Part shown: piece by piece, positions 1 through 14,068 of the stretch
How positions within the stretch are numbered: the stretch's first letter is position 1
Layout of the letters: each line of letters begins with the position of its first letter
Assembly (NCBI GenBank): GCA_963674965.2
Contig: CAXXFL010000005.1
Location: 810,211 to 874,210, forward strand
Direction of reading: 5' to 3'
Length of the DNA stretch: 64,000 nucleotides
Origin: a bacterium
GTDB lineage: Bacteria; RBG-13-61-14; DATKZS01
Position numbers and translations under genes: made by a program
The notes under the pieces: generated by a model
Databases searched by the model: none
What the model was told of the DNA's origin: nothing
What the model saw: only the letters and a program-made list of their open reading frames with translations

Positions 1-747
1 CTGGAAAGGCGTCCACCAAACCCACGGCTCCACCTGGTGCGGTATGGACTGGGTGGACAGTTTCCCGGCGGCCATTTTTTTAAGCTTGGCCGGATCGGGT
101 ATTTTAAGGGCGTCGCCGAGGGGCACGTCCGAGATGTACATTACGGATGTCCCGCCGAACTCGCTCTCTCCCCAGATATGGTCGATGTACTTGCCGGGGT
201 CCTTCTTGATCCTGTCCCTGGCCTCCTTGATGAGGTCGTCGCGGTCTCCGAAGATGGTGGCGCCCGTCGGGCAGGCCGCCACGCAGGAGGGGCGGTTGTC
301 CCGCTCGCTGGCCCGGCACTCCTCGTTCATCTTGCACTTGACCACGTAGGGCACGGGCTTGTCCCACTCGTAGCGGGGGACCATGAAGGGACACGCCAGC
401 ATGCAGTAGCGGCACCCGATGCACTTGTCGGCGTCGTAAACGACCGGCCCGTCCTCGCGCTTGTCGAACGCTCCGACCAGGCAGGCGGCCTTGCAGGCGG
501 GATCGATGCAATGCATGCACTGCCGGCGCACGTTCCTTATTTCCCCGGCGCTTTTGCCGGCTATCTTGACGATCGAGGTGAGCCTCCTGCCGCTCAGTCC
601 GTCCTTCGCCTTGTAATGGGCGGGGACGTCCCTGGGCAGCTTGTTAGCCTGAACGCACGCCTCGACGCATCTCTCACATCCAATGCACTTGGTCACGTCG
701 GTGAGGATGCCCTTCATTTTTCCGTTGCCGGAATGGCCCGAGCTCAT
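1..747 (-). CDS. HybA/HmcB/FdnH-like four-cluster 4Fe-4S electron-transfer protein (runs off the left edge)
   Basis: Translated by hand (not in ORF track): MSSGHSGNGKMKGILTDVTKCIGCERCVEAC...RQCMHCIDPACKAACLVGA...KCIGCRYCMLACPF...KCKMNEEC...PSCVAACPTGA...HIWGESEFGGTSVMY; AAGGAGG RBS upstream. Confidence 0.85.
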   Translation of the reverse strand, partial: MSSGHSGNGKMKGILTDVTKCIGCERCVEACVQANKLPRDVPAHYKAKDGLSGRRLTSIVKIAGKSAGEIRNVRRQCMHCIDPACKAACLVGAFDKREDGPVVYDADKCIGCRYCMLACPFMVPRYEWDKPVPYVVKCKMNEECRASERDNRPSCVAACPTGATIFGDRDDLIKEARDRIKKDPGKYIDHIWGESEFGGTSVMYISDVPLGDALKIPDPAKLKKMAAGKLSTQSIPHQVEPWVWWTPFQ

Positions 748-794: not shown

Positions 795-2312
795 TTATCG
801 TTTGACGTGGCAATCGTCGCAATCGGTCGGACCGGCCAGCCTCTCGTGACAGACGATGCACGAGTCGTGCACCACGTCGCCCAGGCTGGGTATGCCCGTC
901 CTCCATTCCTCGACCGGGTTCGTTTCCTTTTCCGATACGTGGCACTCGCCGCACTTGAGGGGAACGTCGGTCCCCTCGGGGCAGTCGAGGCCGCCGCATT
1001 TAAGGACCCGTTTGCCGTCCTTTTTCCAGGTATTGTGATGGCACTCCCGGCAGGAGAAGGCCATGTCCTGGGCGTGGAACCGGTGCGACCAGTTGGCCTC
1101 GCCCTTGGAGGTCTGGTGCATGAACTGGCCAAAGCTCCTGTCCGGGGCGTGACACCCCTCGCACTCGGTGGGACCGTCTTTTTCCTTCTCGTGGCAGCCG
1201 ATGCATCCGGTGGCCTCTCCGCCCTGGTTCCAGTGCATGGCGTCGGCCAGGGACGGCACGTCCTCGAACTGAAGATCGTCCCGCCCGTGACAGGCGCGGC
1301 AGGCCAGGTAAGGCTCGTTCTCCACGCCGCCGTGCTTGTGGTGGCAGACATTGCAGTCGCGCTCGGAGGGCGCGGCGTGACGCTCGTGGCTCCAGACCAC
1401 GGTCCCGGCCGTTCCGCCGGGGAGCATGGACGGGTTCGAGCGGTGGCACTCTCCGCAGGTTATGGGCATGCCCTTGCCCGCGTCGGGATGATCGGCGTGG
1501 TGGCAATCGAGGCAACGCTCGTGCAGGGCCTCCTCGACGCTGGGCGCGCCCTCCTTGACGGCCATGCCGGTATGGCAGTCCACGCACCTTTCGGCGCCCA
1601 GCTCGGGGTTGTACTCGGTATGACAGGTGAAGCAACGCTTGTGCGCCAGTTCCTCGTGGTCCTCGATGCCCGTGCGCATGGAAAGGGACATTACCTCGGC
1701 CGGCTGGTGGCAGGAGTCGCAGGCCCGGTACTCGCTCTCGAGCACGGGCTTTTCCTCGGTCCCCTTGTCCTTGTGGTGGCAGTACTCGCAGTCCAGCTCC
1801 ATGTAGCGGGAGTGCTCGCGGTGGTCCCACTCGACCTTGCCCATACGGCCGGTGAAGCGCTGCATATGGCAGTCGCGGCAACCCACGGGTCCCTGGTTCT
1901 TGACCACGTGGCAGCCCATGCACTTCGAGTGATAGGCGGTCATCGAGTCGCTCGCCGCGGGTCCCACGCCCTCCTCTTTTTTCATCATTTCCTTGAGGCG
2001 GACGTCGGCCAGCACCACGGAGTCGGCGCTGCTTTTCAGATGGTGACAGTCCTTGCACGGCTTGGGCGTGGTGGCCCCGGCTTTTTCCGCCGCGTCCATG
2101 GCGGACTTGTGGTGGCAGTCGGTGCACTTGACGTCCTTCATCCGGGCGTGAAGCTCATGATTCCAGATCACGTCGCCGATCCTGGCCGGCAGGGTATGGT
2201 CCGGCTCGCCGCTGGGGCGAAGGAGCATGCCTCCCGCGCCGGTCCCGATGAGCACCAATATGGCGGCCAACAGATACTCGACTTTGATTTGTTTACCTTT
2301 CACTGCTATCAT
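795..2312 (-). CDS. Multiheme class III (c3-type) cytochrome c, 18 CxxCH motifs, N-terminal hydrophobic segment
   Basis: 18 CxxCH counted; four W[NDS]HxxH distal-ligand motifs mark four c3-like domains. Confidence 0.92.
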   Translation of the reverse strand: MIAVKGKQIKVEYLLAAILVLIGTGAGGMLLRPSGEPDHTLPARIGDVIWNHELHARMKDVKCTDCHHKSAMDAAEKAGATTPKPCKDCHHLKSSADSVVLADVRLKEMMKKEEGVGPAASDSMTAYHSKCMGCHVVKNQGPVGCRDCHMQRFTGRMGKVEWDHREHSRYMELDCEYCHHKDKGTEEKPVLESEYRACDSCHQPAEVMSLSMRTGIEDHEELAHKRCFTCHTEYNPELGAERCVDCHTGMAVKEGAPSVEEALHERCLDCHHADHPDAGKGMPITCGECHRSNPSMLPGGTAGTVVWSHERHAAPSERDCNVCHHKHGGVENEPYLACRACHGRDDLQFEDVPSLADAMHWNQGGEATGCIGCHEKEKDGPTECEGCHAPDRSFGQFMHQTSKGEANWSHRFHAQDMAFSCRECHHNTWKKDGKRVLKCGGLDCPEGTDVPLKCGECHVSEKETNPVEEWRTGIPSLGDVVHDSCIVCHERLAGPTDCDDCHVKR

Positions 2313-2414: not shown

Positions 2415-2891
2415 ATGTCCCGTTTCGGCATAATCATAAAAACTTCCGACGGCCGCGCCGTCGTCCGGACCTCGCGCCGGGGCGTTTGCGAGTCCTGTTC
2501 CGAGCGCGAGACCTGCACCTTCGAGACGGCGCTCGGTAAGGACGTCCCCGAGGAGGTCGAGGTTTTAAACCCGATCAACGCCTCGACCGGAGACGCGGTC
2601 GAGTTCGACCTGCCCGGCCATTCCGAGCTTAAGGTCTCCCTCCTCATCTGGGCCGTGCCCCTCGCCGGGCTTATTCTCGGCGGAGCGGCCGGCGCGCTGG
2701 CGGGCGACGCGCTGGGCGTCGACCCCAACCTGACCACCCTGGCCGGAGTGGCCGTCGGCCTCGCCGCCGGAATGCTTCCGGTCATCCTCATGGACCGCGC
2801 GGCCGCGAGCGACCCCAAATATACTCCCCGCGTAATCCGGGTCGTGCCCGTCTCCACCTGCCCGACCTCGGTCAGGGAAGACGCCCCCTGA
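2415..2891 (+). CDS. rseC: RseC/MucC family membrane protein
   Basis: MSRFGIIIK...CESCSERETC Cys motif, GDAVEF, two TM helices, PRVIRV tail; adjacent to rnf. Confidence 0.8.
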   Translation: MSRFGIIIKTSDGRAVVRTSRRGVCESCSERETCTFETALGKDVPEEVEVLNPINASTGDAVEFDLPGHSELKVSLLIWAVPLAGLILGGAAGALAGDALGVDPNLTTLAGVAVGLAAGMLPVILMDRAAASDPKYTPRVIRVVPVSTCPTSVREDAP

Positions 2892-5111
2892 TCAGGGCGA
2901 GTTACGCAAAAGTTCCTCCAGCTTCTCGAGGCCCGACTTGTCGGTACCCTCGAGTATCTTTTTATGCTTGTCCTTCTCGGCGTCCGAGTAAAAACAGATC
3001 GTGCCGCAGCGCATGCACCGGTTGGCCTCCGCCTCGATAAGGTCCTGGGTAAGGTTCAGGTCGACCTCGTCGAAGCTCTTGATCCTCTCCTTGGCCGGAA
3101 GCTCGGGCTGAGGCTGCTTCGGGAGCTTGGCCACGCCGAACACCGGCTCCTCGCCCGAGTCGGGGTTTCGCGTGGGCTTGTAGGACACGCCCTTGGGAAA
3201 GCGCATGTCCTTGCCCTCGAGATAAAGATGGATGCTCCGCGCCGCCTGCCTGCCCGTGCCGATGGCCTCGACCACCAGGCCCGGACCGGTCCAGATGTCG
3301 CCCGCCGTAAAGATGTGGGGCACGGTCGATTGAAGCGTTTCCTCGTCGGCCACGATGGTGGCCCACCTGGTCAGTTCGAGGCCCCGCTCCTTCATGTCAT
3401 CGCTCAGCCAGTCGGTGCGGGGCCGCTGGCCGATGGCGGCGATGACCACGTCCACGTCCATCAGGGTCTCGGACCCCTCCTTGGGAACGGGCCGGCGACG
3501 TCCCGAGGCGTCGGGCTCTCCCAGTTCCATCTGGATGTACTCGATCTGTTTTAACTTGCCGTCCTCGCCGGCGATCAGCCTGGTGGGGGCCGCCAGGAAG
3601 TGGTACTGCACTCCCTCGTGCTCGGCCGCCACTATCTCGACGTCGTTGGCGGGCATTTCCTTCCTGGTGCGGCGGTAAAGGAGGATGACCTCGGCCGCGT
3701 TCATGCGCAGGGAGCTGCGGCAGGCGTCCATGGCGGTGTTGCCGCCGCCCACCACCACCACGCGCTTGCCCGCCAGGTCCACCTTGATCCCCAGCTCTCT
3801 TTTCTGGAGGAACTCGGTGCCCTTCCAGACGCCCTCCATGTCCTCGCCCTCGACGCGGAGGGACGAGTTGTCCCACGCTCCCATGGCCAGGAGGATGGCG
3901 TCGAACTCCTTCTCGAGCTCGGCTATCTTGATGTCCGTTCCCAGGTTGACGTTGTATTTCGCCTCGACGCCCAGGTCGAGAATCTCCTGGATTTCCCAGT
4001 CGAGTATCTTCTTGGGCAGCCGGTACTCGGGGATGCCGTAGCGGAGCATGCCGCCGTAGGCCGGCTTGTTGTCGAAGATGGTGACGGCGTGACCCATCCT
4101 GCGCAGGAAGTAAGCCGCCGTCAGGCCGCAGGGACCGCCGCCGATGACGGCCACCTTCTTGCCCGTGTCGGGCAGGCACGAGGGCTTCTTGCGCTCGGGC
4201 AGGGCCCTTTCCCAGTCGGCCACGAAACGCTTGATATAGTTATGATGGACCGGCTCGTCCTCGATGGCGACCCTCCTGCATCCGGCCTCGCAGGGGGCCG
4301 GGCACACGCGGCCGCACACCAGGGGCAGGGGGTTCCTTTCCTTGATGATATTAACCGCCTCCTCGTATTTGCCCTCGGCCGCGAACTCGACGTAGGCCGG
4401 GATGTCGATCTGGGCCGGGCAGAGCTGCTTGCAGGGGGCCAGGCACTCGTCGCTCGTATTGAAATGGAGGAGTCTCTGTGAGGTCGAGTACAGATGGATG
4501 ACGTCCATGGGACAAATCTTTTCGCAGGTCCCGCAGCCCACGCACTTGGAGGCGTCCACCTCGGGCGTTCCCTCGGGCCCCATCTTCAGGGCGCCGAAGG
4601 GGCAGGCCTCGACGCAGGAGCCAAGGCCCAGGCAGCCGTGCTTGCACCAGATGTCCCCGCCCCATACCTCGGCCATGGCCCGGCAGTCCATTACGCCGTC
4701 GTAGTAATATTTCTTGACCGCCCGATAGCCGCCGTTGCAGTAGTGGTCGGCGATTTTAGGCTCGACGAACCCGACCTCGCCGCCCATGACCTTTGCCACC
4801 TTGGCCGCCACGTCGGGGCCGCCGGCAATGCAGGCGTTCACGGGCGCGTCACCGGCCACGATGGCCTCGGCGCAGGCCGAGCACCCGGTGAAGCCGCAGC
4901 CGCCGCAGTTGGCGCCCGGCAGGGAGTCCTCGACCTGGACCACGCGGGGGTCGACCTCGACGTGGAATATTCGGGAGGCCGCCGCCAGGACTATGGCCGC
5001 CACGCCGCCCACCGCCAGCATCAGCAGCATGGGCAAAAGGGTCAGCATGGTCGGGTTGCCAGAATAACTCGCGTAAATGTCCTGCATTATTTTCGCGATA
5101 GAGTCCATCAC
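2892..5111 (-). CDS. rnfB: RnfB fused to a GltD/NfnB-like FAD/NAD(P)H oxidoreductase
   Basis: N-terminal TM, LPGANCGGCGFTGC, ferredoxin motifs, then CPAQIDIP/NPLPLVCGRVCPAPCE, GGGPCG, GGGNTAMD, YRRT, EANRCMRCG. Confidence 0.88.
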   Translation of the reverse strand: MMDSIAKIMQDIYASYSGNPTMLTLLPMLLMLAVGGVAAIVLAAASRIFHVEVDPRVVQVEDSLPGANCGGCGFTGCSACAEAIVAGDAPVNACIAGGPDVAAKVAKVMGGEVGFVEPKIADHYCNGGYRAVKKYYYDGVMDCRAMAEVWGGDIWCKHGCLGLGSCVEACPFGALKMGPEGTPEVDASKCVGCGTCEKICPMDVIHLYSTSQRLLHFNTSDECLAPCKQLCPAQIDIPAYVEFAAEGKYEEAVNIIKERNPLPLVCGRVCPAPCEAGCRRVAIEDEPVHHNYIKRFVADWERALPERKKPSCLPDTGKKVAVIGGGPCGLTAAYFLRRMGHAVTIFDNKPAYGGMLRYGIPEYRLPKKILDWEIQEILDLGVEAKYNVNLGTDIKIAELEKEFDAILLAMGAWDNSSLRVEGEDMEGVWKGTEFLQKRELGIKVDLAGKRVVVVGGGNTAMDACRSSLRMNAAEVILLYRRTRKEMPANDVEIVAAEHEGVQYHFLAAPTRLIAGEDGKLKQIEYIQMELGEPDASGRRRPVPKEGSETLMDVDVVIAAIGQRPRTDWLSDDMKERGLELTRWATIVADEETLQSTVPHIFTAGDIWTGPGLVVEAIGTGRQAARSIHLYLEGKDMRFPKGVSYKPTRNPDSGEEPVFGVAKLPKQPQPELPAKERIKSFDEVDLNLTQDLIEAEANRCMRCGTICFYSDAEKDKHKKILEGTDKSGLEKLEELLRNSP

Positions 5112-5162
5112 CCACCTCTTTTAATGACAAGTAAAACCATTTAGTACGGCCTCATCCAAAAA

Positions 5163-5774
5163 TCAGATCATGCCCTTGAAGGCGAAAAAGCTAAGGGCCA
5201 GAAGGCCGGCCGTGACAAGGCCGATCCCCGTTCCATCCAACACCTTGGGTATCCGGGATATCTCGAACTTCTCCCGGATGCCGGCGAAAAGAATCAGCGC
5301 CAGCCCGAAGCCGCAGGCCGCGGCGGCGGAGTAAACCAGGGCCACGATCAGCTCGTGGCCGGCCCAGACCTTGGTGTACTCCTTGAAATTTTTTATGTTC
5401 AGGAGCGTGACGCCCATGACGGCGCAGTTGGTCGTTATCAGGGGCAGGAAGATACCGAGCGACTTGTAAAGGGCCGGTATGGATTTTCTCAGGAACATCT
5501 CGACGAACTGGACCAGGGTGGCTATAACCAGGATGAAGGCCAGTGTCTGAATATACTCGAGCTTAAGGGGCTTAAGGAACATGAAGTAGGCCAGCCAGGT
5601 GAAAAGGGCGGCCAGGGTCAGGACGAAGACGACGGCCCCCGCCATTCCCACGGCCGTGTCCATTTTCTTGGACACGCCCAAAAAGGGGCAGTTGCCGAGG
5701 AACTGGGCCAGCAGTATGTTGTTGATAAAGATGGCCGCCACAACCAGGGCGATCATATCCGTGAAGACTTCCAT
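5163..5774 (-). CDS. rnfA: Rnf complex subunit A
   Basis: FLGNCPFLGVSKK, LGIFLPLITTNCAVMG. Confidence 0.95.
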   Translation of the reverse strand: MEVFTDMIALVVAAIFINNILLAQFLGNCPFLGVSKKMDTAVGMAGAVVFVLTLAALFTWLAYFMFLKPLKLEYIQTLAFILVIATLVQFVEMFLRKSIPALYKSLGIFLPLITTNCAVMGVTLLNIKNFKEYTKVWAGHELIVALVYSAAAACGFGLALILFAGIREKFEISRIPKVLDGTGIGLVTAGLLALSFFAFKGMI

Positions 5775-5786
5775 GTTCTTTTCCCC

Positions 5787-6395
5787 TTACTTGTTGCCCA
5801 GCTTGCCGAGCACGTTCATCACGCCGAGCATAAGGCCAAGGGCCATGAAGGCGCCGGGGGCCTGCTGGAGGATGGCGAAGGGCTCGAAATTAAGGCCCAT
5901 GGCCTCGAAAAGCTTCCACCCGAAAATCTCGCCGGCGCCGAAAATTTCCCTGAGTCCGCCCAGCACGGTAAGGGACATGGTAAAGCCGAGTCCCATTCCC
6001 AGCCCGTCGGCCATGGAGGCGATGACTCCGTTCTTTTTGGCGAAGGCCTCTGCCCTTCCCAGTATGATGCAGTTGACCACGATCAGGGGAATGAATATTC
6101 CCAGGCTCTCGTAAAGAGGATACACGAAGGCCTTGGTGAACATCTCGACGCAGACCACGAATGTGGCCACGATCACGATGTAACACGCGACCCTGACCTC
6201 GTCGGGTATGACCTTTCTGAGGGCGGAGATGAAGACGTTGGAGCAGACCAGGACGAAGGTCGCGGCCAGCCCCATGCCTATTCCGTTTTCCATGGACGTG
6301 GTTACGGCCAGGGTCGGGCATAGTCCCAGCACGAACCGGAAAGGAGGAATCTCCTTCCATAGTCCCTTGGTAAATTCCTGAGTGATGGTACTCAT
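5787..6395 (-). CDS. rnfE: Rnf complex subunit E
   Basis: LGLCPTLAVT, LGIFIPLIVVNCIILGRAEAFA. Confidence 0.95.
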   Translation of the reverse strand: MSTITQEFTKGLWKEIPPFRFVLGLCPTLAVTTSMENGIGMGLAATFVLVCSNVFISALRKVIPDEVRVACYIVIVATFVVCVEMFTKAFVYPLYESLGIFIPLIVVNCIILGRAEAFAKKNGVIASMADGLGMGLGFTMSLTVLGGLREIFGAGEIFGWKLFEAMGLNFEPFAILQQAPGAFMALGLMLGVMNVLGKLGNK

Positions 6396-6413
6396 ATTCC
6401 CAATCTCCCGCTC

Positions 6414-7034
6414 TTATTTAACGGCCTCTTCAAGCTCGTCCTTGTGTTGGTCATAGGTTGCCTTGGCTTTTCTGATGGCGTCGGCCACGGCCCCGCTGGA
6501 CTTGGTAGCCCCGCTCACCTGGTCGATGATCCCGCCGTTTTTCTTGATCTTGAAGACGGAGTCCTTGCTCATGCCGATGAACTGATGCTGGAAGGCGGGC
6601 TCAGTAACCCTGGCGCCCAGGCCCGGGGTCTCAGAGTGAGTGGTGATACCGATGCCGTCCAGGTTTCCCGACTGGATATTGAAGCCGACCATGACGCCGA
6701 TGTTGCCGCCGTAGCCGCCCTCCCCCTCGCGCTCGATCACGATGGTGTTTGGCTTGCCGTCTTTTTTCGTCACGAACATAAGAAGTTCCTGTTCCTCTCC
6801 GACGTCAATCATTTTATAGCTGGAGAGAAGCTCTTGCGTGACCTTTTCCTCGTCCGCCTCGCTCATCTTGCCGGAAACTCCCTCGATGATGCTTATCACG
6901 GCCGGGACCTTTTTAAACTTGAGCACGTTCTGCTCGCCCTTTTCCTTGGTGAGCCTGTTAAGTCCGCCGAGGGCGATTCCGCTGATGAGGCTTATTCCCA
7001 CCAGGACGACGATCATTTTGATCATGTTACCCAT
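6414..7034 (-). CDS. rnfG: Rnf complex subunit G (covalent FMN)
   Basis: N-terminal TM, GYGG, HSETPGLG, DQVSGATKSS flavinylation motif. Confidence 0.93.
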   Translation of the reverse strand: MGNMIKMIVVLVGISLISGIALGGLNRLTKEKGEQNVLKFKKVPAVISIIEGVSGKMSEADEEKVTQELLSSYKMIDVGEEQELLMFVTKKDGKPNTIVIEREGEGGYGGNIGVMVGFNIQSGNLDGIGITTHSETPGLGARVTEPAFQHQFIGMSKDSVFKIKKNGGIIDQVSGATKSSGAVADAIRKAKATYDQHKDELEEAVK

Positions 7035-8013
7035 TTTGGATCACCACCTCCGTAACCTTGGGCCTGATCCTGTCAAGCAAGGGGTTAAGGACGTTGGACA
7101 AAAGCACGGCGAAGGGTATGGCGTCGGGCCATTGTCCATAGGTCCGAATCAGCATTATAAGGAGTCCCATGCATATCCCGAAGAGCCAGGCGGGCAGATT
7201 GTTGGTGGGGGAGCTGGTCGAGTCCGTTGCCAGGAAGAAGGCCGCAATAATGACGTGTCCGGAAATAAATTGAGCGGCCATGATCTCGGCCAGAGACCCG
7301 CCGCCCAGTTTTTCCGGCGCCACCGACCCGAAGATCAGCGAGCCCAGGATTACGCCGCCGATCACGGCCGCTGGTATCTGCCACCTAATATGGCCGAGGG
7401 CGCAAAGTGCGATCCCGCCGGCGGCGGTGGTAAGGATCACGGCGAAGTGGGCCGAGGCGATGCTTTTCATTCCCACCGGATAGATATGGTGGGGCCATGA
7501 AAGAAGGAGTATAAGCCATCCCACCATGGCCGGATGGAACGGATAACTTCCGATGCCGCCGTAAAGCTGCTTGCCGATGAGTATGGCCAGGAACACGCCG
7601 ATGACCAGGGTCCACCAGGGCACCGAGACGGGCATGAACATGGCCACTAAAAGTCCCATCAGTGCCCCGTGTCCGTTCATGGCGTGATAGGGCTGGCGGA
7701 AGAGCACCTGGATCAGGTACTCGGCCGCGACCCCGACGCCCATGCCCATGGCCAGGACCCCGCCGGCCCCGATCGAGGCGAGGAGGCCGGGACTGATCCC
7801 GAACTCCCGAACGATGGACCCGAGAAGCCACTCGAGCCCCGTGGCCCGGCCGAGGACGTGCATTTCATCGGTCATGAACCCGTGGGCTATGACCCCGATG
7901 GCGGCCGCCGGAAGAAGCGCCAGAATGAAGGCGTAGTTCATCTGGGTGACGCTCGTCTTCGAGCGCCAGTGCGGCCCGGGACCCACGGTGAACAAAGTCT
8001 CTCTAGACTCCAT
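7027..8013 (-). CDS. rnfD: Rnf complex subunit D, short variant
   Basis: GPHWRS, GKQLYGGIGSYPFHPAMVG, FFLATDSTSSP, FAVLLSNVLNPLLD. Confidence 0.88.
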   Translation of the reverse strand: MESRETLFTVGPGPHWRSKTSVTQMNYAFILALLPAAAIGVIAHGFMTDEMHVLGRATGLEWLLGSIVREFGISPGLLASIGAGGVLAMGMGVGVAAEYLIQVLFRQPYHAMNGHGALMGLLVAMFMPVSVPWWTLVIGVFLAILIGKQLYGGIGSYPFHPAMVGWLILLLSWPHHIYPVGMKSIASAHFAVILTTAAGGIALCALGHIRWQIPAAVIGGVILGSLIFGSVAPEKLGGGSLAEIMAAQFISGHVIIAAFFLATDSTSSPTNNLPAWLFGICMGLLIMLIRTYGQWPDAIPFAVLLSNVLNPLLDRIRPKVTEVVIQNG

Positions 8014-8043
8014 TATCTACCCCCGCAAATTTATACCAAGCGC

Positions 8044-9414
8044 TCATCCGGCCGAGGCCTCGGAGACGGCCGGCTCGTTTTGTTCCTTGCAAGCCTCTTC
8101 CGCCTCTTCCCGCGCTTTCTTATCCTTGGCCTTTTGTTCGGCCTCGTTTCTAATCCTTGTTACTTCCCGCTTGGCGAGCCGGATCATCTGCACCAGCGGC
8201 CTCCTGGCCGTGCAGACCATGGCGCAAAGACCGCATTCGACGCAGTTCATGACTCCCAGGTCGTCGGCGGGCTCGAAGATCGAGAACTCCGAGTATCTTC
8301 CCAACAGGCTGGGCTGGAGGTTGACCGGGCACACCGACACGCAGGCGCCGCAGCTTACGCAGGGCTCGTCGCTCCAGGGTAATATGTTTTCCCGGGGAAT
8401 GAGCATGACCGCGTCCAGCCCGGCGTCCACCGGGGCCTCGAGCGAGTACTGGGCGATGCCCCGGAGGGGGCCGCCGGCCAATACCTTGTCGCCGTCCCTG
8501 GGCTTGAGTCCCATGAAGGCGAACAGGTCCTTTAGCTTGGCGCCGATGGGAGCGCGAAGGTTGGCCTTGGCCTCCCCTTTTGGCCCGATAAAGGTGACGA
8601 CCTTTTTATCCTGGACCTTGCCGTCCCGGATGGCGTCCAGGGCCGCCAGGGCCGTTCCCGCCGTGATAACGCGGACGCCCTTGCCGCCGCCGGCCCTAAG
8701 GGCCACCATGGGCTTCAAGGTCATGGGGTACTCGGGGGGCACGGAAAGGACCTTGACGCCCGTGCCGCCGGCCGACTTGCCCGTCTGGCCCGCGCTTTTG
8801 TCATGGGCCGCCACGTAAACGTCCTTGGCCCCGGCCATCTTGCCCAGGACCTTGGCCGCGATGAAAACGTCCTCGGACCTCCAGCGGAAAACCTCGGAGG
8901 TCGAGAAGACCTCGGGCTCGCGGTCAGAGGCAAGCACCACCAGGGTCTCGACCTCGACGTCCGCCTCGGGACCAATGATCTCGCCCAGGGGCCTGGGCGT
9001 ATAGGACTCGGTCAGTATGCCGGCCTCGGCCACCCTGGCCCAAAGTTCCCGGGCCGAGGCGGTTTCCGGGTCCATGGGCTTCCAGGCGACGGGTGAAGAA
9101 TCGGGATCGGGATCGACGGCCACCGAGTGGCCCACGTAATGGTTCCTGGCGTCGGGACCGGATATCACGCCCACTACCTTGCCCTTTACCGGGCAGACCA
9201 CGGCCTTTTTAACGCCGTCGCTTCCCAGGAACTGGCCGGGCTTGACCTGGTCCCCCTCCTTGACCAGGGCCTCGTAGGGGACCCCGGTCCCGCTGAAAAG
9301 CGGGAAGACGAGGCTCGAGGACGCGGCCGCGTCCTTGATGGCCAAGTGCTGGGATTTAAGTGGGAACTTCGGCCGCCTAAACCCGAAGAGCCTATCCGTA
9401 ATTTCGTCAAACAT
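8044..9414 (-). CDS. rnfC: Rnf complex subunit C, divergent
   Basis: VKEGDQVKPGQ barrel domain, SLBB region, GGPLRG, CVSCGACVSVCP and CVECGLCAMVC; first gene of rnfCDGEAB. Confidence 0.82.
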   Translation of the reverse strand: MFDEITDRLFGFRRPKFPLKSQHLAIKDAAASSSLVFPLFSGTGVPYEALVKEGDQVKPGQFLGSDGVKKAVVCPVKGKVVGVISGPDARNHYVGHSVAVDPDPDSSPVAWKPMDPETASARELWARVAEAGILTESYTPRPLGEIIGPEADVEVETLVVLASDREPEVFSTSEVFRWRSEDVFIAAKVLGKMAGAKDVYVAAHDKSAGQTGKSAGGTGVKVLSVPPEYPMTLKPMVALRAGGGKGVRVITAGTALAALDAIRDGKVQDKKVVTFIGPKGEAKANLRAPIGAKLKDLFAFMGLKPRDGDKVLAGGPLRGIAQYSLEAPVDAGLDAVMLIPRENILPWSDEPCVSCGACVSVCPVNLQPSLLGRYSEFSIFEPADDLGVMNCVECGLCAMVCTARRPLVQMIRLAKREVTRIRNEAEQKAKDKKAREEAEEACKEQNEPAVSEASAG

Positions 9415-9781: not shown

Positions 9782-11311
9782 ATGGCGAGAGTGGTAATAG
9801 GTCTGGACGTTTCCGGCGCGGGCTGGAAGTACGCAGTGGCGGCGGGACCGTCAAAAGACAGGATCAGGGTCATCGAGTATGGCCGTTTCGATCCTCCACC
9901 CGTGGACTTCGACTACCTTTTCTCCGACGAGATGGACGAGATCGATCTCGAGGAAAAGGTCTCCGAGTGGGCCGAGGCCTTTTACGCCAAACTCGAGCCC
10001 TATCTTGGCTCGGACCCGGACGTGGTGGTGGGCATTCCCCGCGAGTTGGTGACCATCCGCTCTCTTGACGTTCCCTTTACCAAGGACTCCCGCATCGCCC
10101 AGGTCCTGCCTTACGAGGCCGAGGCCAGCCTGGCCTTGGACGCGGACGAGTTGGTCTTCGATTTCTACGCCCTCGGGTCCCGCGAGGAGGAAACCAGGGT
10201 GCTGGCCGCGGCGGTCGAGCGCGAGAAGATACACTCCCTGCTGACCCTTTTCAAGCTGGTGGGAATCGACCCCATGGTCGTGGCGCCCACTCCCCTTTCC
10301 CTCCATCACCTGGGTCGCGTGACCGGACCGGCCGCTAACGGGGTCCCCTCTCGGACCGGCTACCTTCAAATCGAGAACGGCGGCGTCTTCTTAACGGTAA
10401 CCGAGCAAGATAAAAGCGTTTTCACCGCCTCGTTCCACGCGAGCGAAGACGAGGGACCTTCAACCGGCGCCGGGACAAGCCTTCTCCAGAACATTGGACG
10501 GGCCATTCATTATCTCGAGGGTTTCAAAACGGTCGGCGCCGGATGCCCTCCTCCCTTGAAGAAACTTTTCGTGACCGGAGACCCCGCCAAGGTGGGGCCA
10601 ACCGTTTCCGAGTTGGAACAACGGCTGGGCCTCGAGGTCATGCCCTTTAAAATTGCGCCCGCCGCCGTGACGGAGGACACCCAGCTCAATCCGGATCGGG
10701 ACCTGGCCATGGCCACGTCACTGGCCCTTGCTCTCCAGGGGATGTCCACCGGCAAAAAGGCGGGGCTTAATTTCAGAAAGGGAGAGTTCTCCTTCCGCCA
10801 CGAGCGCAAGGCATTGATAAAAAAGGCTATATTCCCAGCCACCTTGCTGGTGACCCTTGTTTTATCCATTGTCTTCAGCGCCTCGGTTACGGGTTCGTCC
10901 TCAGACGAGAACTCGGCCGCTATCGTGGACCTTATGAAAAAGGAGTTCGCCGCCTATTTTCCCGGCGAGCCCATTGTCGATCCCACCGTCCAGATCAAAA
11001 ACAAGCTGGACGAGACCAAGGCCAAGAAAATCAAGTACGAGGACCTTTCCAACCCCTCGGCTCTTACCGTCATGGCCGCCTTGTCCAGCGCCGTTCCCGA
11101 CGACCTGGTTGTAACCATAACCAGTTTCGATTTCAAGGGCGACAAGCTGGTCCTGAAAGGAGAATGCGAGGAACTGGACATACCCAACAAGGTGGCCAAG
11201 GAACTCGAGAAGGTACCCATATTTAAAAAGGTGGACCTTGGCAATGTAACTTCCGGTAAAGAAAAGAAATTCACCATAGATATCGACCTGAGGGAGAAGG
11301 GACGGCCATGA
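9782..11311 (+). CDS. gspL: Type II secretion GspL (PilM/PilN-like) protein
   Basis: Actin-like N-domain (VIGLDV, VPF..QVLPYEAE), LNFRKGEF, TM, periplasmic ferredoxin-like C-domain. Confidence 0.78.
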   Translation: MARVVIGLDVSGAGWKYAVAAGPSKDRIRVIEYGRFDPPPVDFDYLFSDEMDEIDLEEKVSEWAEAFYAKLEPYLGSDPDVVVGIPRELVTIRSLDVPFTKDSRIAQVLPYEAEASLALDADELVFDFYALGSREEETRVLAAAVEREKIHSLLTLFKLVGIDPMVVAPTPLSLHHLGRVTGPAANGVPSRTGYLQIENGGVFLTVTEQDKSVFTASFHASEDEGPSTGAGTSLLQNIGRAIHYLEGFKTVGAGCPPPLKKLFVTGDPAKVGPTVSELEQRLGLEVMPFKIAPAAVTEDTQLNPDRDLAMATSLALALQGMSTGKKAGLNFRKGEFSFRHERKALIKKAIFPATLLVTLVLSIVFSASVTGSSSDENSAAIVDLMKKEFAAYFPGEPIVDPTVQIKNKLDETKAKKIKYEDLSNPSALTVMAALSSAVPDDLVVTITSFDFKGDKLVLKGECEELDIPNKVAKELEKVPIFKKVDLGNVTSGKEKKFTIDIDLREKGRP

Positions 11312-11838
11312 GCCTGGAAGCACGGGAAAAGAAATTCCTCGGCATCGGGGCTATCGCTTTTGTCTTGATAGTTGCCATCTGGCTTGTCACGGGCGGTGAT
11401 TCCGGGACCAGGGGCGGAGATTCGAAAAGGGTCGCTCAAAAACAGGAGACCTTTCATAAGGACCTGAAGGATTACCTCGAGATCAAGGACTCGGTCGAAA
11501 AGATCGATCAGAGGCTGTCCAAAACTCCGGAGAATTTCGATCTGGCAGGAGAGCTCAACGAGATATTCGACTCCCTGGGAATCAAAAACGCCATCAGGAG
11601 CCTCAACCCCACGGACGCCGGCGCCAACGACTTTTACTCGGCCTCCTACGTGGACATTAAAATAGACGAGATATCCCTTGACGACCTGGTCAGCCTGCTG
11701 GTTAAGATCGAGTCGTCCGACGCCTTTATCAAGGTGGACAAACTCACGGTCAGAAGAAGGTTCAAGGACAACGCCCTGGATATAAATATCAGGGTCGCCG
11801 CCTACTCGGCCAAGCTCGAAGAGGCCCCTCCCAAATGA
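11308..11838 (+). CDS. gspM: Type II secretion GspM-like protein
   Basis: REKKFL followed by TM, ISLDDLVSLLVKIE; ATGA overlap with gspL. Confidence 0.72.
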   Translation: MSLEAREKKFLGIGAIAFVLIVAIWLVTGGDSGTRGGDSKRVAQKQETFHKDLKDYLEIKDSVEKIDQRLSKTPENFDLAGELNEIFDSLGIKNAIRSLNPTDAGANDFYSASYVDIKIDEISLDDLVSLLVKIESSDAFIKVDKLTVRRRFKDNALDINIRVAAYSAKLEEAPPK

Positions 11839-12767
11839 ACGGCTGGAAAAGGATAGTGCTTGGCGGCCTCGGATACCTCCTCTTCTTCGTCGTCTCCCTG
11901 GTACTCTTCACCTTCTTAACCTTCGACCCCACCATGTTCGCGCCCCGCATCGAGCGGGCGGCCAAGGACGGCGGGATAACCCTTCAGATTCAAAAGATTT
12001 CCCTCAAGGGCCTCGGGGGCCTCGAGATGCGGGGAGTTAAAGTCTCCCCCGCGGCCAAGCCTCAGGAAGGCGAAGGGGAGGCGGCCGATCCACCGACTCC
12101 CATGGTCATCGACCGGCTCATTGTAAAGCCCAAGCTCACTACCCTGCCGGGCCTTTTAACGGCGGCCAGGGACAACAAGCCGCCCCGTATCGAGGCCGCC
12201 TTTTCCGCCCGGGTCGGGGAGGGCGAGATCGAATCGGGCTTTCTCTCCTTTTACGGGGAATCCCTTTCCGCGGAGGCCGAGGCCAAGTCTTTTCCCCTGG
12301 CTCGGGTCCCGCTCTCCGGGTTTGAAATCAAGGGCCTCAAGTTCTACGCCCCCACCTTGTCCGGCTCCATGGACGCCAAGGTGAAGCTGGAAATGGGAAA
12401 CCGGAAAAACCCCGACACCTGGAACGGGGACGTCCAGCTGGACCTGAAAAATCCGGGCATAAGCGAACTGAAAAACGCGATTATCGCTTTTCCCGGACCG
12501 AAAATGCAAAGCGGAAACCTCAAGGCGAAAATCGACAGGGGGTTGGTAACGGTCAGTTCCCTTAAACTGGTGGGCGACGACATGCCCATGAACTTTACCG
12601 GGACCATCAAGTTAAACCCCAATTTCGCCGCGTCCATGTCTGAAATTAACGGGACCATCGAGTTCAGCGAGTCCTTCAAATCCAGGCTGGACCCCACCTT
12701 CGCCCAAATGCTTCCGCCCAAGAAAATCGAGTATAAAGGACCCATCGGAAAACTGGCCGCCTGGTAA
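11835..12767 (+). CDS. gspN: Type II secretion GspN-like protein
   Basis: N-terminal TM (GYLLFFVVSLVLFTFLTF), beta-rich AsmA-like body; position after gspM. Confidence 0.68.
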   Translation: MNGWKRIVLGGLGYLLFFVVSLVLFTFLTFDPTMFAPRIERAAKDGGITLQIQKISLKGLGGLEMRGVKVSPAAKPQEGEGEAADPPTPMVIDRLIVKPKLTTLPGLLTAARDNKPPRIEAAFSARVGEGEIESGFLSFYGESLSAEAEAKSFPLARVPLSGFEIKGLKFYAPTLSGSMDAKVKLEMGNRKNPDTWNGDVQLDLKNPGISELKNAIIAFPGPKMQSGNLKAKIDRGLVTVSSLKLVGDDMPMNFTGTIKLNPNFAASMSEINGTIEFSESFKSRLDPTFAQMLPPKKIEYKGPIGKLAAW

Positions 12768-13109: not shown

Positions 13110-13910
13110 CTACTGAAACGCTTTTCCAAATTCATCTTGATCAAGAAAGTACCTCAGTTGAGCGCCTTGCATATTCCGAGCTCGATGAATATCAAACCTA
13201 TTCTCGTCGAACTCCGGCAGGTTCACGTCATTTTCGTCGAAAAACAAGCAATGGCTATACAACGTTCTAAGTTCAGCGTACCGTCTCGGCTCCCATCCCT
13301 TTTTATAGCCATACCAGTCGTCTATCAGCGCGCATTTCGTTCCACATGAATTGTCTCTCTCCAGTGTCACTTTCATTTCAAAATCAAAACAGAGATCGAA
13401 CATCGTAACCCTGCATCTTCCGCCACGTTCTCTCATGCATGGCATTTGGACAGCTACAATGTCTTCGCCACTGTCAAAATAAAGCTCAGAAAAACGATGG
13501 TTTGTAATAACATCAATAACATTATAATTGGGCGCCTCATTTTCGATTTTTTCTCGTATTTGCCGTTCGGCTTCGTCTATCATGGCCGCCATCATCGGAT
13601 CCTGGGAGGATATTTCCCTATTTATTATCCTGGATATGTTTTCATGCCTCAGGTGTTTGAAGATGATCCTCTTAAAAGGTTTCTCCTCCTCGGGACCCGC
13701 ATTTATCAAGCTTTCATGGGAGTAAAATATATCTATTACCCCATTATAATTTTCACCATTAATATCCAGATTCCATTCACTCGGATGGTAGATCTCCAAT
13801 GAGCCGGGTATAAGGCTTTTGTTTTCAATATATCCTATTAGAATGCGTATTGACGCGGCCACGATAACAGACAATACTAAAAAGATTGCGGCTATCGCCT
13901 TTTTCTTCAT
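13110..13910 (-). CDS. Hypothetical exported or membrane-anchored protein, low GC
   Basis: Open frame from MKKKAIAAIFLVLSVIVAA (TM/signal); AT-rich relative to flanks. Confidence 0.65.
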   Translation of the reverse strand: MKKKAIAAIFLVLSVIVAASIRILIGYIENKSLIPGSLEIYHPSEWNLDINGENYNGVIDIFYSHESLINAGPEEEKPFKRIIFKHLRHENISRIINREISSQDPMMAAMIDEAERQIREKIENEAPNYNVIDVITNHRFSELYFDSGEDIVAVQMPCMRERGGRCRVTMFDLCFDFEMKVTLERDNSCGTKCALIDDWYGYKKGWEPRRYAELRTLYSHCLFFDENDVNLPEFDENRFDIHRARNMQGAQLRYFLDQDEFGKAFQ

Positions 13911-14068
13911 GACAACGGGCCTTTTCGCCGGCTTTCCGGCAATGCATTTAATTTTCCTCAGGGCGCATAATCCTAAAAACGGCAGTTGGTAATTCCGCCA
14001 GGGCTTCAAAGATTATATAATATCAGTTGTGTAGGTCAAATTCTGCAATTTCAGGTTGGTATCTCCAT

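Follow-up and report, generated by a model that had tools for sequence, protein, structure and literature searches.

What does an Rnf complex do once the subunit that should meet NADH no longer has a site for it? The question is raised by an intact rnfCDGEAB cluster at positions 2892-9414 (minus strand) of a 64,000-nucleotide stretch of bacterial DNA (assembly GCA_963674965.2, contig CAXXFL010000005.1, positions 810,211 to 874,210; the whole stretch is called the window here). A preliminary description, made from the sequence alone, had read it as a rewired complex that lost the NADH site of RnfC and the flavin loop of RnfD and gained a flavoenzyme fused to RnfB. By sequence comparison, we assign the cluster to the large-RnfB, cytochrome-associated branch of Rnf complexes, in which it forms a deep sub-branch with a remodelled RnfD and fixed neighbours. 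The RnfB fusion and an RnfC without NADH domains are themselves already in print as the "Desulfobacula toluolica Tol2-type" or "Rnf2" complex, which is widespread and expressed; the caveat of the preliminary description that such clusters may be catalogued in sulfate reducers was well placed (PMC5109826, PMC11887813).

The six genes are separated by intergenic gaps of -8 to 51 nt. All six subunit assignments (RnfC, D, G, E, A, B) are supported by Pfam and NCBIfam. RnfE, RnfA, RnfG and the N-terminal part of RnfB exceed the TIGR cut-offs of NCBIfam; RnfC (TIGR01945, 188 vs 246 bits) and RnfD (TIGR01946, 174 vs 207) score below them. The features of the cluster are:

8044..9414, minus strand: rnfC variant, 456 amino acids (aa), RnfC fold, two 4Fe-4S motifs, no site for NADH and flavin mononucleotide (FMN) (Pfam/NCBIfam, alignment, AlphaFold2 (AF2) model)
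8989..9024, minus strand: RnfC residues 131-142, AGILTESYTPRP, replacing the AGIVG(M/L)GGAxFP FMN/NADH loop (alignment)
8914..8937, minus strand: RnfC residues 160-167, VLASDREP, replacing NxAECEP; DREP is kept in the clade (alignment)
8209..8361, minus strand: RnfC ferredoxin-like domain with both CxxCxxCxxxC motifs (residues 352-363 and 391-402)
7027..8013, minus strand: rnfD variant, 328 aa (Pfam/NCBIfam, alignment)
7765..7869, minus strand: RnfD residues 49-83, clade-specific 35-residue insertion after the first transmembrane helix (TM1) (alignment, AF2)
7420..7491, minus strand: RnfD residues 175-198, 18-residue linker replacing the 55-79-residue periplasmic linker with the flavinylated Thr
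6414..7034, minus strand: rnfG, 206 aa, FMN_bind domain (Pfam/NCBIfam, alignment)
6504-6515, minus strand: SGAT flavinylation motif of RnfG (alignment)
5787..6395, minus strand: rnfE, 202 aa, canonical; Cys26 and Cys109 align with [2Fe-2S] ligands
5163..5774, minus strand: rnfA, 203 aa, canonical; Cys29 and Cys117 present
2892-5111, minus strand: rnfB as a whole, a single open reading frame (ORF) of 739 aa
4467..5111, minus strand: N-terminal part of rnfB (residues 1-215), with a transmembrane helix, a PF04060 Fe-S domain and a 2x[4Fe-4S] domain
2892..4466, minus strand: C-terminal part of rnfB (residues 216-739), an NfnB/GltD-like module with Fer4_20 and Rossmann folds for flavin adenine dinucleotide (FAD) and NAD(P)H

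RnfC was aligned residue by residue to the solved chains 7zc6_C, 9eri_C and 8ahx_C of the Clostridium tetanomorphum, Acetobacterium woodii and Azotobacter vinelandii complexes. Residues 131-142, AGILTESYTPRP, stand opposite EAGIVGMGGATFP of the solved RnfCs, a counterpart that is written AGIVGMGGATFP in the residue-by-residue alignments, and residues 160-167, VLASDREP, stand opposite VNAAECEP; TESYTPRP and LASDREP are found at the places of GMGGATFP and NAAECEP. In Pfam, Complex1_51K (PF01512) reaches 16.5 bits, below its cut-off of 31.2, and SLBB is not detected at E<=0.01. The window RnfC does not carry the set of features that marks a NuoF-type FMN/NADH site (GxGGAxFP, ECEP, Complex1_51K plus SLBB). 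Both 4Fe-4S motifs are kept, so that the preliminary description is borne out by the three alignments and the Pfam scores on what this subunit lost as well as on what it retained.

A word-indexed search returned 57 further RnfC homologues of 36-56% identity, all from metagenomes or metagenome-assembled genomes (MAGs) and nearly all without PF01512 and PF10531, after which identity falls to canonical RnfCs at 27-32%. Since the replaced stretches are conserved in these relatives, as AG(I/V)xTDSxxPRPL and LAADREP, the replacement cannot be put down to chance. An exhaustive HMMER search of 1.84 billion cluster representatives yielded 280 matches at E<=1e-30; among the best 150 of these, canonical RnfC motifs are present in 40 and missing in 110. 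Seven of the eight cluster Cys are invariant in an alignment of 31 sequences. The eighth is Cys in 26/31 and Ser in 5/31; it is the second Cys of the first 4Fe-4S motif, the column of Cys355 of the window RnfC (which has Cys), and the five members with Ser could hold a Ser-ligated or a 3Fe-4S cluster. An AF2 model of the window RnfC (predicted local distance difference test score, pLDDT, 91) superimposes on solved RnfC structures with template-modelling (TM) scores of 0.78-0.83. Among the metagenomic relatives of the clade, RnfC and RnfD also occur as single fused proteins of ~760-785 aa (P0030, P0036, P0043, P0088, P0107; L017:8001-10286). Decay of RnfC-RnfD to pseudogenes was considered and rejected, given the conserved replacement motifs, the retained cluster Cys and the conservation across loci.

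The alignment of RnfD breaks where the solved RnfDs carry the periplasmic linker with the flavinylated Thr, reported as Thr153 in C. tetanomorphum and T156 in A. woodii (PMC9588780, PMC11889175). In a multiple alignment, the conserved blocks are 18 residues apart in the window and 55-79 in five canonical loci, and the T-A-T-P-L type site is gone. Judged from this alignment, the window RnfD would have no Thr for covalent flavin attachment in a periplasmic linker, in agreement with the preliminary description. The protein is not short, as had been said there; its overall length is 328 aa because the 35-residue insertion after TM1 offsets the linker deletion. The insertion was modelled as two short helices with low confidence; this AF2 model (mean pLDDT 69, from only 10 sequences) was used for the helicity of the insertion alone, being too weak for the flavin pockets.

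Linker length sets the window and its closest relatives, ten clade members in all, apart: it is 18 residues in 10/10 of them, 49-63 in 66 other non-canonical loci and 55-79 in the five canonical ones. The column of the flavinylated residue reads Y in 22, E in 17, A in 12, S in 6, T in 3 and other residues in 6 of the 66 non-canonical loci outside the clade. With the riboflavin ligands of RnfD taken from PMC11889175, all ten clade members have His in place of the ligand Asn and retain the ligand Asp; D264, which corresponds to riboflavin ligand D249, and H160 are both invariant among them. The literature searched yielded no statement on loss of RnfD flavinylation or on a linker deletion in Rnf2, with the proviso that the supplement of PMC11887813 (fig. 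S18) may mention RnfD.

The other four subunits give a different picture. RnfB is RnfB-like over residues 25-232 and continues into a module with Pyr_redox_2 and Fer4_20 domains and the motifs VIGGGPCG, VVGGGNTAMD and YRRTRKEMPA. The solved relatives of residues 213-708 are NfnA of NfnABC (434/429 bits), StnC (378), NfnB (332/321) and GltD (246), homology to NfnA/StnC extending up to residue 708; the GltD/NfnB-like module announced in the preliminary description is indeed part of the 739-aa ORF. A YRRTxxEMPA stretch is common to RnfB and its best solved relatives, and we infer NADPH rather than NADH specificity of the module. Likewise confirmed by alignment are the intact RnfG motif and the Cys pairs of RnfA and RnfE: SGAT (residues 174-177) of RnfG aligns with the flavinylated GAT of 7zc6_G and 8ahx_G, and the Cys of RnfE (LCPT, VNCI; 218 bits to A. 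woodii) and RnfA (NCPF, TNCA; 201 bits) align with their A. woodii counterparts. The genome encodes one ApbE, which makes flavinylation of RnfG feasible.

How far are these features linked elsewhere? Scans of one genome per species, with ORFs read stop to stop, gave 83 loci. The RnfC motif region is present in 80, of which 75 have neither canonical motif and five have both. These five canonical loci (L037, L067, L075, L080, L089) share a short RnfB and the RnfD Thr, and none has a multihaem gene in its vicinity. Of the 78 non-canonical loci, 58 yielded an RnfB, fused to a GltD-like part in 57 and split in one. The preliminary description had called for a survey of co-occurrence, and the RnfB fusion does accompany the loss of the RnfC motifs (57/58 RnfBs); the deletion of the RnfD linker does not, being confined among these loci to the clade of the window. 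In the split case (L027:12146-14275), an RnfB-like ORF of 231 aa adjoins a GltD-like ORF of 478 aa, which may reflect an unfused form or a frameshift. For 15 of the loci without RnfB the sequence ends too early. In the other five (L039, L040, L054, L065, L069) no rnfB follows rnfA across 2.2-5.3 kb of downstream sequence. These are cytochrome c-rnfCDGEA clusters, with a convergent rseC next in L040 and L054 and with yceG, smr and RNase II genes after rnfA in L065 and L069, where the RnfD flavinylation column holds Thr; their rnfB may lie elsewhere or be absent.

Directly upstream of rnfC, an ORF with 3-13 haem motifs (mostly 4, 8 or 10) is present in 61/69 non-canonical loci outside the clade, compared with 0/5 at the same position in the canonical loci; three of the eight loci without it have no upstream sequence. 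That such a gene is a feature of Rnf2 follows from the present survey and is not stated as defining in the papers. According to PMC5109826, Tol2-type complexes have an RnfB of ~700 aa with NAD+-binding sites and an RnfC without NADH-ubiquinone oxidoreductase or SLBB domains, this Rnf needs another acceptor or donor "which has to be identified", and D. multivorans forms both Rnf1 and Rnf2. PMC11887813 places Rnf2 in the core genome of the Desulfobacteraceae and describes it as abundant and constitutive in the six strains studied there. In the literature that we searched, the loss of the RnfD site, the deletion and insertion of the clade and the fixed neighbourhood described below were not found, although supplements may bear on them.

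The clade of the window comprises the window and nine MAG loci (L010-L018), and the 18-residue RnfD linker and the 35-residue insertion are present in 10/10. The DREP motif of RnfC is a feature of the same clade, together with the remodelled RnfD; these features are absent from the other loci. The MAGs are labelled Phycisphaerales, Planctomycetaceae, Sandaracinaceae, Acidobacteriota, Gemmatimonadetes, 'Proteobacteria', 'Deltaproteobacteria TL4' and 'bacterium'. RnfD is of this type in the remaining four genomes of the window's family as well, at 53-59% identity. In a tree of concatenated RnfD, RnfG, RnfE and RnfA, the clade is long-branched and forms one side of a branch with a Shimodaira-Hasegawa-like approximate likelihood-ratio test (SH-aLRT) value of 100 among the large-RnfB lineages, the window being sister to the other eight clade loci (L018, whose rnfE and rnfA are cut by a contig end, was left out). 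As the canonical rows were lost to a 70% coverage filter, the tree is unrooted and does not tell if the clade lies inside Rnf2 or beside it as a sister group. The kinship of the window goes from 'same class' straight to 'same domain', which suggests a sparsely sampled lineage. The genome (97.6% complete) contains DsrAB, with DsrA at 596.7 bits; the nearest counterpart of this DsrA, at 87%, comes from a MAG labelled only 'bacterium', followed at 71-74% by MAGs that are unclassified or labelled Anaerolineales. In the preliminary description the cluster had been likened to second Rnf clusters; searches of the genome with TIGR01945 and PF03116 found no other Rnf/Nqr-type cluster and a single PF03116 gene, and the idea of a second Rnf was dropped.

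The clade also shares a downstream gene order, consisting of rseC (usually convergent), a 16-18-haem HmcA-like cytochrome, an HmcB/HybA-like protein and an HmcC/HybB-like NrfD protein with a 6-haem domain. The neighbouring features of the window are:

2415..2891, plus strand: rseC-like gene (RseC_MucC), convergent with and abutting rnfB (Pfam)
795..2312, minus strand: HmcA-like multihaem cytochrome c of 505 aa with 18 CxxCH motifs and a hydrophobic segment at its N-terminus (Pfam/NCBIfam)
1..747, minus strand: HmcB/HybA-like 4Fe-4S protein that runs off the window start, 308 aa in full (L093:14032-14958)
L093:12176-14035, outside the window: HmcC/HybB-like NrfD protein fused to a 6-haem domain, 619 aa

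The 16-18-haem cytochrome gene was found downstream in the window, in 6/6 MAG loci of the clade with at least 2.7 kb of downstream sequence and in 4/4 family relatives. The HmcC-like NrfD gene is present in 5/5 clade MAG contigs searched and in 2/2 family relatives with enough contig; across the four family genomes the gene order is complete in two and cut by contig ends in two. The Hmc-like proteins A, B and C score under their equivalog cut-offs (114/400, 227/420 and 200/550). The HmcB-like protein ends in a C-terminal transmembrane helix followed by KRRSH, so that by the positive-inside rule its Fe-S domain would be periplasmic. No HmcDEF genes follow the HmcC-like gene; the next genes downstream (L093:8884-11777) encode a 402-aa ankyrin-repeat protein and an rve-family integrase, and the conserved block therefore ends there. 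On the other side, no cytochrome gene lies upstream of the window rnfC; a GspL/PilN-like type II secretion/pilus assembly gene is found instead, followed by two ORFs without a Pfam match (9782-12767, plus strand). Further away, a 299-aa ORF at 13110-14009 (minus strand), also without a Pfam match, lies in a low-GC stretch (0.44 vs ~0.6).

Which reaction could such a complex catalyse? In canonical Rnf, electrons pass from the RnfB clusters via the [2Fe-2S] cluster of RnfA/RnfE to FMN-RnfG, FMN-RnfD, riboflavin, the RnfC clusters, FMN-RnfC and NAD+, with less than 5 Å (<5 Å) between FMN-RnfG and FMN-RnfD and 7.7 Å between FMN-RnfD and riboflavin (PMC9588780). Kumar et al. place ion translocation at RnfA/RnfE and not at RnfD (PMC11889175). 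We regard it as an even call that the window complex acts as an ion-coupled wire linking cytoplasmic NAD(P)H to periplasmic cytochromes or quinone, with RnfD-RnfC serving a cytoplasmic partner. NAD(P)H, probably NADPH, would exchange hydride with the FAD of the NfnB/GltD-like module on RnfB; electrons would run along the Fe-S chain of RnfB to the [2Fe-2S] cluster of the RnfA/RnfE pair, presumably the ion-coupled step, and on to the covalent FMN of periplasmic RnfG. The main exchange partner of FMN-RnfG would be the periplasmic multihaem cytochrome, since the covalent FMN to which RnfG normally hands its electrons has no site on this RnfD. The cytochrome could connect to the menaquinone pool through the HmcB/HmcC-like proteins, and the flow would be reversible. 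RnfD, with a non-covalent flavin site partly kept, and RnfC, with 2x[4Fe-4S] and no FMN/NADH site, would form a conserved, redox-capable branch to a cytoplasmic partner. Exchange between FMN-RnfG and a periplasmic cytochrome appears the most economical reading because FMN cannot be attached to RnfD, RnfA/RnfE and FMN-RnfG are intact and a multihaem cytochrome is almost always co-encoded. The preliminary description had suggested a periplasmic or quinone partner, and this gains support from the conserved synteny with the 16-18-haem cytochrome and the HmcB-like and HmcC-like genes. A link of the operon cytochrome between the periplasmic cytochrome pool and NAD(P)H/ferredoxin was proposed before (PMC4287179, citing Pereira 2011).

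For the clade, this can be carried further to a self-contained respiratory segment, in which the flavin-borne return through RnfD would have been abandoned and electrons from NADPH would run over RnfA/RnfE and FMN-RnfG to the 18-haem cytochrome and then to a quinone reductase of the HmcBC-like type. RnfD, remodelled on its periplasmic side by the linker deletion and the helical insertion, would offer the cytochrome its docking site. This extension is tentative, and we would rather lean against it as a whole. If it were true, complex I and Na+-NQR would be joined by a third design that couples NAD(P)H:quinone electron transfer to ion translocation.

Several points weigh against electrons leaving to a cytochrome. 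RnfC and RnfD are strongly conserved and the RnfC clusters are kept, which would be unneeded if all electrons left at RnfG. According to PMC4215793, the operon cytochrome gene dhcA had no fitness effect in D. alaskensis G20 under conditions in which rnf was essential; the G20 complex may be of another type. Five large-RnfB loci (L042, L062, L068, L073, L086) have no multihaem gene in their flanks. They form one clade in the tree, and their RnfC motif region is enlarged by a long insertion; the RnfD Thr is kept in L062, and L073 is Desulfacinum infernum DSM 9756, a cultured member with which the cytochrome hypothesis might find a natural control. No signal peptide is recognisable in the HmcB-like protein; its first cluster motif begins at residue 21, with no ATG, GTG or TTG in frame before the gene. 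It has to be kept in mind, too, that the proportions of our survey are not prevalences, as the retrieval patterns were drawn from the variant itself and the sample is biased to its relatives. Finally, a gene neighbourhood is not proof of an interaction, and we infer every electron-transfer step.

The dispensable dhcA and the conserved RnfD-RnfC pair with its intact clusters are the reasons for which we keep a cytoplasmic exit as the main rival of the cytochrome wire, or as a branch co-existing with it. As a rival, it would make the complex an NAD(P)H:X oxidoreductase with a semicircular path, from the RnfB flavin to FMN-RnfG, a non-covalent flavin in RnfD, the RnfC clusters and a cytoplasmic acceptor with a higher potential than NAD(P)H. 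Candidates for the acceptor would be DsrC- or Qmo-linked proteins, flavodoxins and thioredoxin-like proteins; the cytochrome module would be an accessory side exit or unrelated. The invariant RnfC Cys, the conserved DREP and TDSxxPRPL motifs, the retained fold, D264 and H160 of RnfD, the RnfC-RnfD fusions and the DsrAB of the genome all suit such a path, as does the neutral dhcA mutant. However, the gap between FMN-RnfG and riboflavin is bridged in canonical Rnf only via FMN-RnfD, the linker covering the flavin pocket of RnfD is wholly deleted here, and no candidate acceptor gene is conserved beside the cluster, where only rseC and the cytochrome/HmcBC-like genes are found. We consider this exit somewhat improbable as the main one.

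The complex might still be a ferredoxin:NAD(P)+ oxidoreductase, with ferredoxin bound either at the exposed RnfC clusters or at the ferredoxin-like RnfB domain, and with RnfB as the place of NAD(P)+ reduction. Rnf2 is drawn in PMC11887813 as the link of the NADH and ferredoxin pools, rnf is reported to be needed in D. alaskensis where ferredoxin balance matters (PMC4215793), and stand-alone NfnB homologues are described as monofunctional ferredoxin:NADP+ oxidoreductases (PMC12221290). The direction of ion transport speaks against ferredoxin on RnfC: if the ion coupling of RnfA/RnfE is conserved, as the sequences suggest, electron flow outward from RnfB would be the ion-exporting direction, and with NAD(P)H on RnfB and ferredoxin on RnfC an uphill reaction would then be paired with ion export (a deduction from PMC11889175). 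Ferredoxin docking on RnfB, beside the flavin, would bypass the membrane part. Gradient assays driven by ferredoxin:NAD+ are reported to have failed in D. alaskensis G20 vesicles (PMC4841214), and the near-universal cytochrome gene would be left unexplained. Taken together, a ferredoxin:NAD(P)+ reaction is unlikely.

Still less probable is a convergent, Nqr-like NAD(P)H:menaquinone reductase, with the nucleotide module at the RnfB position and quinone reduced at the RnfD/RnfC interface. The analogy is that in Nqr, NqrF takes NADH, NqrA is cofactor-free and quinone is bound at NqrB (PMC11889175, PMC12174285), and RnfC does match NqrA models (E 1.7e-14) and structures (TM scores 0.67-0.74). However, NqrB keeps the covalent FMN that the window RnfD lost, RnfC keeps both 4Fe-4S clusters where NqrA has none, and a separate quinone-interacting protein of the NrfD type is encoded nearby. 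That the RnfD-RnfC branch is a degenerate remnant with a structural role only, as the loss of three cofactor sites (FMN and NADH on RnfC, covalent FMN on RnfD) might suggest, is scarcely credible in view of its strong conservation across loci labelled as several phyla, the invariant cluster Cys, the clade-specific conserved motifs and the absence of stops and frameshifts. The preliminary description had left the branch "degenerate or repurposed"; with the cluster Cys, motifs, fold and D264 conserved and with RnfC-RnfD fusions in existence, repurposing fits and degeneration does not.

What follows for Rnf2-type complexes in general? A large part of carbon oxidation in marine sediments is due to Desulfobacteraceae. 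In metabolic models, the Rnf2-type complex is still shown as a ferredoxin:NAD+ pump. Four traits go together in most of the surveyed loci: an NAD(P)H module on RnfB, an RnfC without its nucleotide site, an RnfD without its flavin site and a gene for a multihaem cytochrome. The clade goes further, as its RnfD linker is deleted outright and an HmcABC-like module is a fixed neighbour. On this combined evidence, we would call the textbook reaction wrong throughout the branch. A testable alternative is NAD(P)H exchanging electrons with a periplasmic cytochrome and quinone. The pattern also offers a natural parallel to the Rnf-to-Nqr transition. The main value of the locus lies in the comparative evidence on the actual role of Rnf2-type complexes. 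The original paper on the Tol2-type Rnf of Desulfobacula toluolica is reportedly that of Woehlbrand et al. 2013.

Compared with known systems, the window complex resembles canonical Rnf, the Na+/H+-translocating ferredoxin:NAD+ oxidoreductase (7ZC6, 9ERI, 8AHX), in its six subunits, near-canonical RnfA/RnfE with [2Fe-2S] Cys, the RnfG flavinylation motif, the RnfC fold with two 4Fe-4S motifs and the rseC neighbour known from clostridia (PMC9124969). It differs in having no FMN/NADH site on RnfC and no predicted covalent-FMN site on RnfD, in its cytochrome association and in the NfnB/GltD-like FAD/NAD(P)H module, which replaces the distal polyferredoxin part of RnfB. With Na+-NQR it shares a nucleotide dehydrogenase module at the RnfB position and an RnfC homologue without a nucleotide site; however, NqrF and the GltD-like module are not related, NqrA is free of Fe-S clusters, covalent FMN is retained on NqrB and no cytochromes take part in Na+-NQR, whereas the window cluster has no NqrF gene, retains the RnfC Fe-S motifs and shows no RnfD flavinylation site. 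In Methanosarcina acetivorans, Rnf is likewise encoded with a multihaem cytochrome c (MmcA), which is reported to pass electrons to a membrane carrier and not to NAD+; RnfB, C, D and G reportedly retain their known cofactor sites there, with ferredoxin as donor (bioRxiv 10.1101/2022.07.20.500911), whereas the window complex lost the RnfC and RnfD sites and carries an NAD(P)H module on RnfB. The downstream genes match the HmcA, HmcB and HmcC models, in the same order, of the Hmc/Nhc-type complexes of sulfate reducers, from which they differ in scores below equivalog, in the missing HmcDEF, in the fusion of the HmcC-like protein to a 6-haem domain and in having 18 instead of 16 CxxCH motifs.

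The closest known system is the Rnf2/Tol2-type complex. Both have the rnfCDGEAB order, an RnfB of ~700 aa that includes a flavoenzyme module for nucleotide binding, a nearby gene for a multihaem cytochrome c and an RnfC that is devoid of Complex1_51K and SLBB and keeps its Fe-S clusters; in most members the flavinylated Thr of RnfD is missing as well. The window differs in its separate, long-branched clade (SH-aLRT 100, unrooted), in the RnfD linker of 18 versus 49-63 residues, the 35-residue insertion after TM1 and the exchange of the riboflavin-ligand Asn for His, and in the DREP motif of its RnfC. Instead of a small cytochrome gene upstream, it has a 16-18-haem cytochrome and HmcB/HmcC-like genes downstream, behind a convergent rseC. 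And whereas D. multivorans has Rnf2 in addition to Rnf1, the window cluster is the sole Rnf of its genome.

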